Sequence record: MT446420.1
From: Escherichia virus TH54
DNA length: 64,000 nt
Direction: 5' to 3' (one strand)
Of the stretch, positions 2,031 through 29,254 are shown one piece after another. The notes below the pieces were generated by a model. It was not told the DNA's origin. It ran no database searches and worked only from the letters and a program-made list of their open reading frames with translations. Within the stretch, counting starts at the first letter, position 1. Every line of letters begins with the position of its first letter. The translations under genes were made by a program, and so were the position numbers.

Positions 2031-2402
2031 TTACTGAATATCAAAAGTTGCTTTAATCAGTGCAATGACTTCCGCCGCATTTTTATGATTTACCTGCACA
2101 TAAATGGTTTGGGTATCAACAGCAGGAGCATCGCCATCAACTTCCAGGAAGTGGCAGAATTCCCATTCACCAAGTTCAAAGTACTCATCATCATCACCCA
2201 TACTATTCAGGATGGTGCCATCTTTCATTTTAACTTTTTCAACAAAATAATCACCTTCAATATAACACATATCCAGGACTTTGAAGGAATTGCCATGTTG
2301 TTCCATCAACTTGGCTATGCACGAATTATCATCAGGACTACCAGCGATGAATTGTTTTTTAGCAGCAGGGTCTAATACGTAAAATTTACCAGTTTCCATC
2401 AT
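2031..2402 (-). CDS. hypothetical protein, paralog of 2749..3111
   Basis: 123 aa; shares GDD(D)EYFEL.E.EF and C-terminal ..I.LI/LQKAF motifs with 2749..3111. Confidence 0.5.
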   Translation of the reverse strand: MMETGKFYVLDPAAKKQFIAGSPDDNSCIAKLMEQHGNSFKVLDMCYIEGDYFVEKVKMKDGTILNSMGDDDEYFELGEWEFCHFLEVDGDAPAVDTQTIYVQVNHKNAAEVIALIKATFDIQ

Positions 2403-24178: not shown

Positions 24179-24454
24179 TTAATTGTGCATTTGTTCTTTA
24201 ACTTCTTTGTATGCGCCAACTGCATTCACGACACCGGTAAAATCTGCTGTTCCACGATAGAGATAGAAAGCGATTTCAGTCAGGTGGTAGACTTCAAATT
24301 CTGAAAGATAAACGATAACGTCATAATATGCAACTTGACCCTGGACTTCGTTGAATACTACATCAAAAATTTCATGAGTTGGAAAATTGATGTTGTTGTT
24401 TTTGAGTGCTTGAATAAGAATTTGTTTGATGTTGTGAGTAGTAACTTGTTCCAT
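24179..24454 (-). CDS. hypothetical protein
   Basis: Track ORF 24179..24544; start re-set to ATG 24454 whose SD lies in a 9-bp hairpin. Confidence 0.4.
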   Translation of the reverse strand: MEQVTTHNIKQILIQALKNNNINFPTHEIFDVVFNEVQGQVAYYDVIVYLSEFEVYHLTEIAFYLYRGTADFTGVVNAVGAYKEVKEQMHN

Positions 24455-24501: not shown

Positions 24502-25095
24502 TCAGCTTGTAAACCGGTGATAGGGAAATTTTTCTTCTGAACAAGAACGGAGGTACCAGCCATCCCCTTGTGACTTCTGCACAAGACCAGACTCAGGAAC
24601 AAAAGCCCCAGGCCCAGCAAGGAATTTTGGTTTAAATCTATAACCTTTGATAGTCTCTTTTACATTAAACATAATCATAAGGTCAGCAAGCTTGTGTTGC
24701 ATAAAAGGACCAAGATTAATCCCGTAACCATGTGGATAATCGCCATGACTACCAGTATGCACGGATATCCATTTGGAACCAGACTGGTGGGTCTTGACTT
24801 CGATTCTTACCCCTTCCTTCGAAACTACATCAAATGCAAAGGAATAGGGATTATCGTAATCTTCATCACCGCCGCATAAAAAGCCGGAGGTCCATTTAGC
24901 AATAGCTTGTTCTGCCATTGTAGCCACCATACATCTTTGCATGACTTGCTCACGGTCTTGACCTGGGTCTTTACGCAATGAATACCTGGCTGTGTCTACA
25001 ATCTTTTGCAGGGATTCAGGGGTTAAATCTTCTTTTGTATAAAGAAAGGAGGGCATCTTTTTCAGATGCTCCCATGTTTTACTCTTCTGAATCAT
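24502..25095 (-). CDS. hypothetical protein (denB-equivalent position, identity not established)
   Basis: 197-aa ORF between ndd cluster and rIIB. Confidence 0.4.
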   Translation of the reverse strand: MIQKSKTWEHLKKMPSFLYTKEDLTPESLQKIVDTARYSLRKDPGQDREQVMQRCMVATMAEQAIAKWTSGFLCGGDEDYDNPYSFAFDVVSKEGVRIEVKTHQSGSKWISVHTGSHGDYPHGYGINLGPFMQHKLADLMIMFNVKETIKGYRFKPKFLAGPGAFVPESGLVQKSQGDGWYLRSCSEEKFPYHRFTS

Positions 25096-25348
25096 CTTTT
25101 ACCTCATCGATGCCGACGATTCCCCGGATATGAAGCTCGCCATAGTACAAACGGTCATTAGCATCAAATGTATCAGAATCCGGGTCAGGGAATTCCCCAA
25201 CAACTACTTCATCACATTCCAACCAGCCATAGTGAACATCACCTTCATGCTTGATGAGCTTACCACAGTAAACTATTCCTGCGTAATGGTGACCCCGGAG
25301 ATTTGAAACTTTGATGTCACGGTCTGACACATTGAAATGCTTAATCAT
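25079..25348 (-). CDS. hypothetical protein
   Basis: 89-aa ORF. Confidence 0.35.
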   Translation of the reverse strand: MIKHFNVSDRDIKVSNLRGHHYAGIVYCGKLIKHEGDVHYGWLECDEVVVGEFPDPDSDTFDANDRLYYGELHIRGIVGIDEVKDDSEE

Positions 25349-25351
25349 AAT

Positions 25352-25561
25352 TTATTCACCAAAATAAGAGATACGAATTGCCAGTACATGAGCATAAGCG
25401 CTCATTGCATCTAACTGGGCATTCAAAAGACCTTGCTGACGAGCATCGAGAGTTTCAAAAACTCCACCCTTAATAAACTCTTCAAGAGCATTAATTTTCA
25501 AAACCAGCTGGTCATATTCTTCAACTACACGTGCTTGGAAACCTAACATTTCTTTAGACAT
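25352..25561 (-). CDS. hypothetical protein
   Basis: 69-aa ORF. Confidence 0.35.
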   Translation of the reverse strand: MSKEMLGFQARVVEEYDQLVLKINALEEFIKGGVFETLDARQQGLLNAQLDAMSAYAHVLAIRISYFGE

Positions 25562-26045
25562 TGTGTTCTTCCATATATTTTAATCGAGCTTCATTTGCTT
25601 CTTCTGGAGTTGCAAAAGCTCCGACTTGAATTTGTTTTTTATTTCGCATAATAGTGGCTCGCCATGGTTTATTCAAAGCTCGTTTATCAAACGAGACTCC
25701 TTTAAATCCAGACTTGTTGTTATTATACGGGCGCTTATTTAAAGCATTCTCGCCTGGACTAACCCATCTGCAGTTATCGGGAGAGTACCCTTTATCGTTA
25801 TCTGTTCGGTCAAGTTGATGTTTGTCAGTGGGTCGTGGCCCCATATCTGTATAAAATCTTTCAAAATCATGCAGCCATTCATCGCAAACAGTGATACCCC
25901 GACCGCCATATCGAGAATAACTAATATGTGTTGGATTGCAACACCGAGCTTTCATGCCAATCCATACAATGTATTCAGGCGTGTGACCTAGCCCGTGGAC
26001 AATACCACGAGCCGAGCCATCTTTAGCAATTGTTTGTTTAATCAT
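25554..26045 (-). CDS. putative HNH homing endonuclease with C-terminal AP2-like DNA-binding domain
   Basis: 163 aa; HQLDRTDNDKGYSPDNCRWVSPGENALN (H-N-N pattern) plus GFKGVSFDKRA..KPWRATI...VGAFATPEEANEARLKY (AP2-like); ATG lies inside the rIIB stop region. Confidence 0.55.
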   Translation of the reverse strand: MIKQTIAKDGSARGIVHGLGHTPEYIVWIGMKARCCNPTHISYSRYGGRGITVCDEWLHDFERFYTDMGPRPTDKHQLDRTDNDKGYSPDNCRWVSPGENALNKRPYNNNKSGFKGVSFDKRALNKPWRATIMRNKKQIQVGAFATPEEANEARLKYMEEHNV

Positions 26046-27018
26046 TGAAACGTTCGGTCACATCTTCAAGAACCAGGTAACCGCAAACCCTCATCTTACT
26101 ATCGGAATAATCCACCGGGATACTTACAACATCGCGCGGGTGAACTTTACATGATACGATGCGCCCATCACCATGACCAAAACCGCTTCCGATATAGCCT
26201 TTAGAGCAAACATGTAACCCGGTTGAACAGGTCTGTTCGTCATTGTCATTCACACGAGAGCGTGGCATTTTAACATATTGGCCAGGGCTGTTGTCGAATG
26301 TGTTTGAGTGACAATCTTTGTAGGTTGAACGAACCATTTTCCATGCGATGAAATAACCGTCTTCGGTGATTTCGATATCGTTCGCAACCAGGAAGTCAAA
26401 CAAACGCTGTACAGCTTTCTCACTCGGGTTCTCAAGGAGATTCTCGAGGAATGGCAGATAGAATTCAAAGTCTTCGCCATTTTGCATTGAATCAATGATA
26501 CGAGTAACCAGGCCAGAGCGCAGTTCAATTCCCTGATAGAACAGGCTACCACCTTCAATACGCACATCGCCTTTCACATATTTTTGTACTGCAGCTTTGA
26601 TTGAGATAAACTCGATAGCATCATCAAAACGAGATTCAATCAATGCCTGAATAATATCATTAAAGTGTTTATGGTCTTTTGTTGCGTTCCAGACCGTACG
26701 ACCTTCGGTGATGGAAACGAATTTGCTTGATGCATTCCATACGATTTCCGGGCGGCTTCCGCCAATTGTATCTTCAACAACCGGGACTTCAACCGTTACT
26801 GTCACCGGAGCATTAATCGCCACACCAACAGCTGCTTTCAGTGATGCAGAAATGGTTTTAGATAATTTTGATTCTTTATCATTTTTCAAAACACGGCGAA
26901 TGGTGTCAACCGATACACCGAAATTATCTGCTAGTTCCTGTTGGGTATAATTACCAGTTTTATAAAGAGAAACTACCTGGTTTTGGTCAAATTTGGATAA
27001 AGCTTTAATATTAAACAT
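26038..27018 (-). CDS. rIIB: rIIB membrane-associated protein
   Basis: GNYTQQELAD..GVSVDTIRRVLKN...GDVRIEGGSLFYQ.IELRSGLV.RI.DSM..GE.FEFY.PFLENLLENPS.KAV.RLFDFLVANDIEITEDGYF collinear with T4 rIIB. Confidence 0.95.
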   Translation of the reverse strand: MFNIKALSKFDQNQVVSLYKTGNYTQQELADNFGVSVDTIRRVLKNDKESKLSKTISASLKAAVGVAINAPVTVTVEVPVVEDTIGGSRPEIVWNASSKFVSITEGRTVWNATKDHKHFNDIIQALIESRFDDAIEFISIKAAVQKYVKGDVRIEGGSLFYQGIELRSGLVTRIIDSMQNGEDFEFYLPFLENLLENPSEKAVQRLFDFLVANDIEITEDGYFIAWKMVRSTYKDCHSNTFDNSPGQYVKMPRSRVNDNDEQTCSTGLHVCSKGYIGSGFGHGDGRIVSCKVHPRDVVSIPVDYSDSKMRVCGYLVLEDVTERFND

Positions 27019-27019
27019 A

Positions 27020-29254
27020 TTATTCCTTATTGGCCGCTTCCACGGCCTTCATGATTTGAGCAACGTTCTGTACTTGTTCAGTTGACATGGCGTTACGGTT
27101 ATATAAAAAGTGTGAAACAATCGGGTGATTCTTTTCAAATTCAAAAACCATTTTATCGCTTGTTACCGAAGCGTTTTTGGTCAGGTCGTCATAAATCTTA
27201 TTACAAAGGACCAGAGTTTCCTGCATGGTCTTATCAACTGTTCCACTGTTATATGCATTATAAGCAAAGAACTTATTGAACTGCATTAGTTCAGCATAGT
27301 CAGTGTTCACATCTTTCTGAACATCTTTTGCATAAAAATACTTGAACATAAAATTCAATTCTGCATATTCAGACAGGATAGGAATATAATAACGCGAACG
27401 GCTTGAAGCGGCAATGTACTGGTCCGCATCAACTGAATCAATCAATTCCACATAACGATTGACTGCAGCTTCAATCAGACAATCACACTGCGCCAGCTTG
27501 GTAACCTTTTTCTGAAGCTGCGGGCGAATAACACAGAATTCATTGATTTCCAACAGGTTTGCCAGTTTGCACAATGTCTGGGTCCCGAAGTTCGTGACGC
27601 CATAATCCTGATTCAACGGGGAAATGCTGCTGCGGTTAATGAATACAGCATAACCATCGATTTCCTCTGCATCAGCTGCACACGTAAATTCTTCAACAGC
27701 CTGCCAGCGACCATTGGTTTTAGTCCAACGAATCACCGATGGAGTCTTTGACTTAACACGCTCTTTCGGGTCCGCAACCGGAATCCAGTCTTTTACAAGG
27801 GCGGTCAGTTCAGACGTACGATAGATATTAACTGTATCGCCTTTAAATCGTTCTTGAAGTTGAACCATCAGACGTGTTTGAATTTCGCTGGTTGGGTCAA
27901 CGAACAATAGACTACTACCTTGTACAGTCGGAACTTTACCAGATGCTTTGAGCTTTTTGGCTTTCGCGCTGGTGTCATACAGCATTGAACTGATACCACG
28001 AATCATCGCAATTCGCCCTTTAGCATCGTCAATAACAATATTCAAGGTATCATTATGAATACCAAACATGCTTGTCAGGCTTGCAGTATTCGTGTTCGAG
28101 CTTGAGTTACGCAGACGTTTCAGACGGGTAGTGCTATAGATATCATAGACAACCCCGGCATTAATAAGGTCTTTGTCCAGCTCGAACATTTCGTACATCT
28201 GGTTAAAAGTCAATTGTGATTTTGTAAATTTCGTTTCAGCATTACGAGCTTTCAGAAAATTACGAGCTTCATAACTCAGACTCTGCAATTCGCGATACGT
28301 ATGGCGGATACATTCTGATTCCTGCCATTTCTTACAATCATCTTCCATGACCTTCTTATCAAGCGATTCAATACGTTCAACGATATTTGCGACCGTACGT
28401 TTGTCCAGTGATAATGCTTCGCGAGAAGGTGCAATATCCAACGAACCCATCGGGAACTTAATAAAGACAACATCATTTTTGGCAGTCATCCAGGTTTTCT
28501 TTGTATAACCGTCACCAATCGGATAAACAATACCGCCGTAAATTGCATAAAGTCCATAACGTTCTGGGCTGCTATAATCAATACGCGCTGGAGCATAATA
28601 ATCATCAAATTCTGGGAAGTAATTAATTTCGCCTACGCCTTGCACTTCAGCCAGTCCAGCAAATGGACGCATGATATACGCAATCTCGTAGCGGAACTTA
28701 CCAAAATCATTACTATCAACCGGGACAACAACTTCAATCCCTGTGCGGTCACCAGGTTTCATTGGTTCGCTAAAGGTTGGCTTAATCTGTGGACCATCGC
28801 CATCCATATAAGCGACATAACCGTTAACTTGACCATCATGATATGAAATCAGGCTAAACGTCTCGGTATAACTGAACGGAGATTTAGAACCCAGGCCAAA
28901 GCCACCAATAAAATCGTTGGATTCAGCCTTGGATGATGCAAAGAAACTGTTATACAGACCTGGAGTATTTTCATCACCACGAATCTGGAAATCACTCATA
29001 CCCGGACCAAAGTCACGACATACAAAACGTGGGTCCAGTTCACCAGGAGCTTGCACAATGAATTTATCCTGACAACCATTGAGCATATGAGCATCAATCA
29101 TATTGGTAATCAGCTCACGAACAACCGCGCGCACCTTGTTTGTATAAAGGTCGCTGGTCAGAATCTTAAACACCTTTGGAGATGCCTGGATTGTGAATGC
29201 TGATGCCTTGGCACCATTACCAAGGATTGTTTCCTTTTCAGTTTCTAAAATCAT
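27020..29254 (-). CDS. rIIA: rIIA protein
   Basis: 744 aa; N-terminal ATPase-like ...VRELITNMIDAH...GGFGLGSKSPFSY; size and position as T4 rIIA. Confidence 0.9.
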   Translation of the reverse strand: MILETEKETILGNGAKASAFTIQASPKVFKILTSDLYTNKVRAVVRELITNMIDAHMLNGCQDKFIVQAPGELDPRFVCRDFGPGMSDFQIRGDENTPGLYNSFFASSKAESNDFIGGFGLGSKSPFSYTETFSLISYHDGQVNGYVAYMDGDGPQIKPTFSEPMKPGDRTGIEVVVPVDSNDFGKFRYEIAYIMRPFAGLAEVQGVGEINYFPEFDDYYAPARIDYSSPERYGLYAIYGGIVYPIGDGYTKKTWMTAKNDVVFIKFPMGSLDIAPSREALSLDKRTVANIVERIESLDKKVMEDDCKKWQESECIRHTYRELQSLSYEARNFLKARNAETKFTKSQLTFNQMYEMFELDKDLINAGVVYDIYSTTRLKRLRNSSSNTNTASLTSMFGIHNDTLNIVIDDAKGRIAMIRGISSMLYDTSAKAKKLKASGKVPTVQGSSLLFVDPTSEIQTRLMVQLQERFKGDTVNIYRTSELTALVKDWIPVADPKERVKSKTPSVIRWTKTNGRWQAVEEFTCAADAEEIDGYAVFINRSSISPLNQDYGVTNFGTQTLCKLANLLEINEFCVIRPQLQKKVTKLAQCDCLIEAAVNRYVELIDSVDADQYIAASSRSRYYIPILSEYAELNFMFKYFYAKDVQKDVNTDYAELMQFNKFFAYNAYNSGTVDKTMQETLVLCNKIYDDLTKNASVTSDKMVFEFEKNHPIVSHFLYNRNAMSTEQVQNVAQIMKAVEAANKE

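Follow-up and report, generated by a model that had tools for sequence, protein, structure and literature searches.

A probable homing endonuclease gene of the HNH-AP2 class at the rIIB-denB.1 junction of phage TH54 and other Gapriverviruses

In phage T4, rIIB is followed by a 27-nt spacer and then by denB.1 and denB, with no gene in between. In Escherichia virus TH54 (MT446420.1) the same junction is occupied by an open reading frame of 163 codons, which raises the question of what this gene is, how it came to stand there and what its product may do. The analysis covered a window of 64,000 nt of the TH54 sequence. Gaprivervirus genomes (VR7, SP18, MN01, TH57 and others) match the region with 93-97% identity, and the phage is a Gaprivervirus, a VR7/SP18-like T-even. 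An earlier note, made from the letters of the DNA, had held that no such gene is known at this position in T4, which proved correct, and had read the ORF as a mobile, free-standing HNH/AP2 endonuclease gene.

The gene and its two junctions

The features of the locus, in order of transcription, are the following.

27020..29254, minus strand: rIIA
26038..27018, minus strand: rIIB, upstream neighbour, 326 aa (PHROG 609, E = 9.5e-104)
26038..26045, minus strand: start codon of the gene within the final codons and stop of rIIB, ATGATTAA (read from the sequence)
25554..26045, minus strand: homing-endonuclease-like gene, free-standing, 163 aa (ATG-initiated ORF)
25554..25561, minus strand: stop of the gene overlapping an upstream denB.1 ATG, ATGTCTAA (junction alignment of occupied versus empty alleles)
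25352..25549 or, from the upstream ATG, 25561, minus strand: denB.1, downstream neighbour (PF21825, Sequestin family; Pfam E = 2.2e-19)
25079..25348, minus strand: DUF7418 gene (Pfam)
24502..25095, minus strand: denB (PHROG 1360, E = 4e-80)

Both the 163-aa ORF at 25554-26045 and its initiation at an ATG inside the final rIIB codons, with an overlap of 8 nt, had been claimed in the earlier note and are borne out on the minus strand. The end of rIIB, TTC AAT GAT TAA, is read by the gene as ATG ATT AAA. Homologs of the ORF number 6743 in the database at E <= 1e-5, PHROG 374 'HNH endonuclease' matches it with E = 7.9e-59 and its AF2 model has a mean pLDDT of 89.4, indicating that it is not a chance ORF.

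A second overlap, on which the earlier note was silent, occurs at the other end, where the stop of the gene, AATGTCTAA (AAT GTC TAA), shares bases with an ATG located upstream of the annotated denB.1 start. If used, this ATG would add four residues to the denB.1 product, giving 69 aa; the start annotated in relatives (MLGFQ) lies at position 25549. In occupied genomes this overlap stands in place of a GAGG Shine-Dalgarno and a UUCG hairpin that belong to the empty allele. The neighbour affected is a member of the Sequestin family, which acts as an anti-Thoeris sponge (bioRxiv 10.1101/2025.07.12.664507).

Inspection of the sequence upstream of the gene revealed no strong Shine-Dalgarno, making translational coupling to rIIB likely, and a search for a promoter or terminator of its own returned nothing convincing. 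We infer that the gene is co-transcribed with rIIB and translated by coupling.

Occurrence, empty site and flanking sequence

The gene is not new to the databases, its VR7 orthologue (VR7ORF292c, 98.8% identical) being already labelled 'HNH endonuclease' in RefSeq. At the DNA level it was recovered from only 7 of 50,697 phage records, corresponding to VR7 (2 records), MN01, DCP80, 212 and Morganella phage MP1 (2 records). Within Gaprivervirus, the carriers are VR7, MN01 and DCP80, plus phage 212 with a frameshifted copy. The empty junction, probed with 240 nt of phage CJ20 spanning the uninterrupted rIIB-spacer-denB.1 sequence, was found in 569 records at >= 80% coverage, across T-even phages, and the matches at >= 90% identity include 28 Gaprivervirus records from about 23 distinct phages. 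Presence/absence comparison at the rIIB 3' junction, which the earlier note had named as a check on its claim of mobility, thus shows a gene that is not conserved in all relatives, and this favours mobility.

Comparison of occupied and empty alleles delimits the additional segment sharply.

25550..26051, no strand: segment found in occupied genomes, 502 nt (BLASTN breakpoints against CJ20 and P8, alignments and hairpin fold)

Where occupied genomes hold these 502 nt, empty Gapriverviruses have a spacer of 41 nt between rIIB and denB.1, in which a GGGGC(UUCG)GCCCC hairpin and, for denB.1, a GAGG Shine-Dalgarno are found. Homology between both types of genome picks up exactly after the last rIIB sense codon and at the denB.1 ATG. 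In phage 212, an insertion of 2 nt within the invariant GGRG codons shifts the reading frame of the resident copy; unless this is a sequencing error, the copy is a pseudogene and represents a stage of decay.

Another possibility considered was that AP2 targets the GC-rich UUCG hairpin at the empty junction and that insertion destroys this target. This idea was weakened by two copies from other lineages, since contig L019 retains a UUCG hairpin 3' of its copy and MP1 has none.

The sequences flanking the gene were mapped for mismatches among carriers and for differences fixed between occupied and empty genomes.

25494..26121, no strand: mismatch-free tract versus MN01, 628 nt (mismatch maps)
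25517..26133, no strand: mismatch-free tract versus DCP80 (mismatch maps)
26046..26110, minus strand: gene-linked rIIB 3' tail allele (differences fixed between occupied and empty genomes)

The DNA of the gene is identical in MN01 and DCP80 (100%) and 99.2% identical in VR7. The identical tracts (617-628 nt) take in the cassette, 36-60 nt from denB.1 and 76-88 nt from rIIB, and beyond them mismatches occur once per 10-25 nt. At a flanking divergence of 4.8%, the probability of 628 nt without a mismatch is about 5e-14. The rIIB gene itself is composed of two parts of different affinity. The 105 nt adjacent to the gene are 97-99% identical to the carriers VR7, MN01 and DCP80 versus 83-93% to non-carriers, whereas the other 868 nt are 88-92% identical to carriers versus 97-98% to the non-carriers TH57 and CJ20. 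Likewise, nucleotide diversity over the last 75 nt of rIIB falls to a trough of 0.019 among carriers, and rises among non-carriers to a local peak of 0.111 versus 0.03-0.05 in neighbouring windows.

Carriers also share a distinct rIIB tail. Their protein ends in DYSDSKMRVCGYLVLEDVTERFND, immediately before the stop, where empty genomes have DY(N/G)D..LVLDDVTEQF; the extreme C-terminus is LVLEDVTERFND in carriers versus LVLDDVTEQF in non-carriers. Fixed differences between occupied and empty genomes are located at 26056, 26059 and 26105-6, and in addition there are a change of CAA to CGT and two added codons. The coding ends read GTG ACC GAA CGT TTC AAT GAT TAA in carriers and GTA ACT GAA CAA TTC TAA in empty genomes. 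This tail allele may be a mark of target-site immunity, or it may be derived from the donor. The pattern of the identity tract fits that of a homing co-conversion tract, and on the aligned sequences could also have been produced by ordinary recombination. Taken together, the sporadic occurrence, the clean empty site, the co-converted flanks and the decaying copy are marks classically left by a homing element. The mobility proposed in the earlier note is in this way upheld by patchy presence, by these marks and by the co-inheritance of flanking markers.

Outside the genus, the nearest homologs occur in Morganella phage MP1 (70% identity) and in three metagenomic T4-like contigs (64-67%). All four sit right after rIIB and before denB.1 or denB, with start codons that overlap the rIIB 3' end. 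Among the five lineages, pairwise identity of the protein encoded by the gene is 58-71%, compared with 37-58% for rIIB, 34-41% for rIIA and 24-45% for denB. Such high identity across lineages fits transfer between them into one conserved target, and the C-terminal codons are the best conserved stretch of rIIB.

The pairing of lineages is nevertheless the same for the gene and for rIIB (the TH54 phage with MP1, and L019 with L020), and this rough congruence leaves room for long residence with repeated loss. The gene would then be an old inhabitant of the rIIB-denB region, vertically inherited and deleted in most lineages, with flanks made mosaic by ordinary T-even recombination. The occupation of one locus in five divergent lineages suits such a history, as do the GC content of the gene, which equals that of its flanks (0.41 vs 0.42), and the lack of paralogs elsewhere in the window. 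Also, the adjoining DUF7418/YopX cassette is likewise polymorphic and has no nuclease of its own. Vertical descent, however, does not readily explain a base-identical cassette in backgrounds that are 8-12% diverged in rIIB, with tract ends lying 36-88 nt off in two independent genomes. Nor does it explain why across lineages the protein is better conserved than every flanking gene, or why the diversity trough of carriers and the peak of non-carriers fall exactly at the junction. We consider this history quite unlikely, and a homing element is the reading followed below.

Fold of the protein and its candidate active site

In the AF2 model, the protein consists of an N-terminal domain, helical with a predicted beta-beta-alpha-metal fold (residues ~15-105), and a C-terminal AP2 domain (~112-160). 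The second of these had been anticipated in the earlier note and is confirmed by three lines of evidence. Residues ~112-160 are modelled as a three-strand sheet and a helix; the Pfam AP2 model matches the protein itself with E = 2e-4 (21.9 bits, a value under the gathering score) and 58 of 96 family members with a best E = 3e-11; and the family profile, compared with plant AP2 structures, matches the AP2 domain of WRI1 with E = 1.5e-9. In the N-terminal part (residues ~20-105), the model places three helices ahead of two strands (77-80 and 92-95) and a further helix (97-102), and these last three elements make up what is, as modelled, a beta-beta-alpha-metal unit. A search of NCBIfam with the protein gave no match.

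The claim of an HNH-like core was not supported in the form given. A nuclease-like domain is present and retains the metal-binding Asp/Asn and structural Asn positions (D79, N91, N100, N103), but the catalytic His of the classical motif is missing. No Pfam HNH model matched the protein at E <= 0.1, and HNH_3 matched 2 of 96 relatives, weakly (best E = 0.0054). Twelve residues are invariant in all 96 relatives (R34, C35, G47, G48, R49, W57, F64, R80, Y87, N91, W94 and N103); position 79 is D or E in 94, position 100 is N or Q in 95, and His76, the histidine that opens the core string (residues 76-103) quoted in the earlier note, occurs in only 60. The profile alignment to I-HmuI, which is not significant (E = 0.44), pairs D79-R80 with D74-H75, N91 with N87 and N100 with N96. 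Since Arg80 aligns with I-HmuI His75, the general-base His appears to have been replaced by Arg80. The earlier note had held that a lack of the catalytic His/Asn residues on proper alignment would speak against its reading, and the alignment finds the His absent and the Asn positions present.

25737..25820, minus strand: candidate PacI-type catalytic core, residues 76-103, HQLDRTDNDKGYSPDNCRWVSPGENALN (family conservation, alignments to I-HmuI and PacI)

A closer counterpart of this core is found in the restriction enzyme PacI, a His-Me finger that has no such His, in which a Tyr of the omega loop takes its role and an Asp and an Asn bind the metal (PMC5714182, PMC4081073). The link arose from fold comparison, followed by direct pairwise comparison. 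Searches of PDB sequences with the single protein and with the family profile returned AP2 matches only, plus the non-significant I-HmuI, and Foldseek of the nuclease domain against the PDB gave nothing significant (PacI, E = 1.7). In the pairwise comparison (VDRSDSFEGYSPQNARL), BLASTP gave E = 2e-4 and hhalign E = 0.0015, with D79-R80...G86-Y87-S88-P89...N91 aligned to D92-R93...G99-Y100-S101-P102...N104 of PacI. The invariant Tyr87 therefore lies within a GYSP motif common to both proteins, and its partner, Y100, is the only Tyr of PacI between D92 and N113. The PacI sequence was checked against the PDB, and the roles of its residues were drawn from PMC5714182 and PMC4081073 in addition to the sequence.

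The two enzymes differ in other respects. PacI (PDB 3LDY / 3M7K), a homodimeric type II enzyme of 142 aa, has two Cys4 zinc sites, lacks an AP2 domain and recognises TTAATTAA, whereas in the TH54 protein, presumably a homing enzyme, AP2 forms a module of its own. No counterpart of the CxxC pairs or of the two Cys4 sites was found in it, and only three Cys (C35, C54 and C92) are conserved among the 96 relatives, for which reason the domain is filed as PacI-like in its active site and not as a PacI orthologue. Judged from these alignments, the domain belongs with the His-Me fingers of PacI type and not with the classical H-N-H. The roles proposed are those of metal ligand for D79, of substitute for the HNH His for R80, of base or nucleophile for Y87 and of structural residue for N91, and N100 and N103 are counted with this set. 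The resemblance to PacI is not wholly new, given that a 2025 paper superposed on PacI a hidden phage HNH having AP2-domain proteins among its BLAST relatives (PMC11855218).

The N-terminal domain is very abundant. On its own it retrieves 111,668 clusters (50% identity) at E <= 1e-3, of which 82,798 reach E <= 1e-10, and models of it are lacking in both Pfam and NCBIfam. Many of the top matches carry 2-4 tandem copies of the domain; in such proteins some copies have Phe for the Tyr or Gln for the Asp, but another copy is unaltered, suggesting that the Tyr matters beyond folding. Tentatively, the domain might define a branch in which an invariant Arg stands for the general-base His and the invariant omega-loop Tyr is catalytic, possibly via a transient covalent phosphotyrosyl step.

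The same replacement of the general-base His by Arg in all 96 relatives, together with the silence of the Pfam HNH models, could instead indicate a catalytically dead derivative. The protein would in that case be a site-specific DNA-binding regulator or silencer, using AP2 and a degenerate His-Me finger for DNA contact, and by analogy with SMAD MH1 and the CasPR repressors it might control neighbouring or competitor genes. His-Me fingers that bind DNA without catalysis are known (PMC5714182), and the tandem copies of many relatives could be taken in the same sense. The CasPR anti-CRISPR repressors (CapR + AP2; bioRxiv 10.64898/2026.02.23.707548) are, like the TH54 product, phage AP2-domain proteins and have been proven to be transcriptional silencers; a CapR-like N-terminal extension occurs in 5 of 96 relatives, the longer ones. 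Compared by description, however, CasPRs act through DNA binding and not cleavage, whereas the TH54 protein keeps PacI-like catalytic residues and gave no Pfam match to the CapR domain. Moreover, the residues kept invariant coincide exactly with the set of the active site of PacI (D-R, GY, N, N/Q), tandem proteins with altered copies keep one intact, and the sporadic distribution, the pseudogene and the gene-centred identity tract suit a selfish element rather than a regulator beneficial to its host. A dead derivative is in our view unlikely, and an active nuclease is the reading retained here.

Known relatives and the proposed homing cycle

The gene fits a class that has already been described. 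'HNH-AP2' genes were listed for RB49, RB43 and JSE (PMC1524935, PMC2993671), and for T4-related phages 'HNH-AP2' appears among the classes listed (PMC2993671). More recently, IPA-HNH homing endonuclease genes were defined as having at the N-terminus a domain related to HNH but so diverged that Pfam HNH_3 misses it, and at the C-terminus an AP2 domain, T4 being without them according to Barth et al. (PMC10448857). The founding proteins of the class are Gp59, Gp209 and Gp115-116 of ICP1. The TH54 protein answers to this description, with an atypical HNH that is unseen by HNH_3 and a C-terminal AP2, and by its sequence belongs to the class. The genes are also alike in being free-standing, sporadic and placed beside conserved phage genes; the rIIB-denB.1 locus, in contrast, is absent from the discussion in the papers on this class. 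BLASTP against ICP1 Gp59 gave E = 3e-6 (27% identity over 115 residues), although Gp59 has a Lys where the family of the TH54 gene has Arg80, and comparison with the ICP1 Gp115 fragment gave no match.

Among His-Me fingers, I-HmuI and HNH_3 (group 2) share with the protein the beta-beta-alpha-metal fold and the D-x...N...N order, and members of this group often bear AP2 or NUMOD DNA-binding modules (PMC5714182). I-HmuI differs in having His75 in place of Arg80, in being intron-encoded and in nicking one strand. PacI-type enzymes form group 20 (PMC5714182), which the protein resembles in the replacement of the His, the Tyr and the Asp plus Asn. The SegA-G and MobA-E genes of T4 are comparable in their way of life, since they lie between conserved genes, occur sporadically in T-even phages and co-convert flanking markers; they are, however, GIY-YIG or classical HNH nucleases with other DNA-binding modules, and none is located at the rIIB-denB.1 junction.

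These observations suggest that the gene, which is free-standing, is probably a homing endonuclease gene of the HNH-AP2, or 'IPA-HNH', class that resides at the rIIB-denB.1 junction of a Gaprivervirus. It would be transcribed together with rIIA-rIIB, and coupling to the stop codon of rIIB would give weak translation. [quoted passage not shown] During mixed infection, the enzyme would nick or break the rIIB-denB.1 junction of a gene-less genome, and T-even recombination-dependent repair would take from the carrier the 502-nt cassette together with a few dozen bases of its flanks. Carrier genomes would be protected in this proposal by the loss of the 41-nt spacer and by the altered final codons of rIIB. 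The element would pass through a cycle of gain, decay and loss, with the frameshifted copy of phage 212 as its decay stage. The anatomy of the locus, the domain folds, the residue conservation, the distribution, the identity tract, the pseudogene and the constancy of the locus across lineages are what the sequences show, and cleavage, target, catalytic roles and mode of expression are deduced in this scheme.

T-even phages recombine so freely that a short cassette could also be carried over by ordinary homologous exchange.

Phage homing endonucleases, such as those encoded by the T4 seg and mob genes, are known to cause localized marker exclusion as a by-product. This, and the setting of the gene among genes for host takeover and anti-defence (rIIA/rIIB, the Sequestin-family denB.1 and denB), would accord with a nuclease for competition or defence, one that degrades or excludes co-infecting related phages or attacks host DNA alongside denB and ndd. 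Yet an AP2 domain implies high site specificity and not bulk degradation, most successful relatives are without the gene, and the mechanism overlaps with homing to an extent that makes them hard to separate in silico. Such a primary function appears highly improbable, and homing is the preferred explanation.

For phage genomics, the locus offers a tidy example of the homing life cycle, in which carriers, empty genomes, a decaying copy and a sharply bounded co-converted tract are found within one genus. Current understanding is not overturned by it, the class being known and an orthologue already annotated; the value of the case lies in the clean co-conversion signature, in a PacI-type site, as read from the alignments, within a very abundant domain that has no profile model, and in the position within an anti-defence block. 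Because the gene is located inside a block of countermeasures to host defence (rIIA/rIIB, denB.1), the spread of the element drags along an allele of the rIIB tail and the 5' end of the sponge gene, and the element also rewires the translation start of denB.1. Since carriers, non-carriers and a natural pseudogene exist in culture, this rIIB-linked element would be handy as a test case. As a warning for annotation, 'HNH' labels on AP2-linked phage proteins mask a putative PacI-like, His-less active site. If the reading of an Arg/Tyr branch is true, most phage 'HNH-AP2' homing endonucleases would share a mechanism that has been documented for only one restriction enzyme.

Junction with denB.1

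In carriers of the HNH-AP2-class endonuclease gene, which lies between rIIB and denB.1, a stop/start overlap (ATGTCTAA) takes the place of both the native GAGG Shine-Dalgarno of denB.1 and the UUCG hairpin upstream of it.

window 25352..25561, minus strand: denB.1, downstream neighbour of the endonuclease gene (PF21825, 'Sequestin' family)

Recent work (bioRxiv 10.1101/2025.07.12.664507) has demonstrated that Y16O, the T4 homolog of denB.1, is a 3'cADPR sponge that counters Thoeris. The stop/start overlap may alter expression of the denB.1 sponge in carriers. A metagenomic T4-like contig (L019) encodes an endonuclease homolog, and between this gene and denB.1 it has a promoter-like stretch along with a GGACTC(TTCG)GAGTC hairpin that bears a T-run (2139..2237); in this lineage the homolog is located upstream of the hairpin, which has not been replaced.

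Other features in and around the rIIB-denB region

Three further features lie in or next to the region:

window 26796..27020, minus strand: rIIB 5' end, N-terminal ~75 codons (HTH_7-like Pfam match, E = 2.8e-6)
window 25079..25348, minus strand: DUF7418 gene, between denB.1 and denB
window 24179..24454, minus strand: 91-aa ORF (VR7ORF288c), downstream of denB

Within the genus, the N-terminal ~75 codons of rIIB are hypervariable, with a diversity of 0.19-0.27 vs ~0.05 in the remainder of the gene. Diversity at the DUF7418 gene position is ~0.27 among non-carrier genomes, and the gene is a swappable cassette, a 321-nt YopX-domain gene being found instead in P8, DK-13, EAWsc9, RZ and others. The 91-aa ORF of the window had no match in the Pfam search; VR7 carries it under the label 'similar to Staphylococcus phage G1 ORF058 putative HNH nuclease', and the EAWsc9 annotation reads 'MafI family immunity protein'.

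Relatives of the N-terminal domain

The N-terminal domain of the endonuclease protein, a beta-beta-alpha-metal domain with a PacI-like active site, is without a model in Pfam or NCBIfam, and its relatives form ~110,000 clusters at 50% identity. Many of its best matches (among proteins P0121-P0270) contain 2-4 tandem copies, often followed by a helix-turn-helix-like module in place of AP2. In certain copies among these top matches, Phe replaces the Tyr, or Gln the Asp, at the proposed catalytic positions.

Endonuclease copies in phages 212 and DCP80

PQ765507 (phage 212), L005 2155..2650: endonuclease orthologue, with a 2-nt insertion within the invariant GGRG codons
PQ671644 (phage DCP80), 46747-47238 and 37034-37273: rIIA-rIIB-denB region, two copies (L007 and L021)

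Annotation of the phage 212 orthologue is limited to a 321-nt C-terminal CDS; either this copy is in decay or the insertion is an error of sequencing. The 140,978-bp 'complete genome' of DCP80 contains the rIIA-rIIB-denB region twice, once with the endonuclease gene and once with an empty junction, and is probably a chimeric assembly from two co-occurring phages. Read in this way, the record would capture two phages occurring together, which is the condition required for homing.
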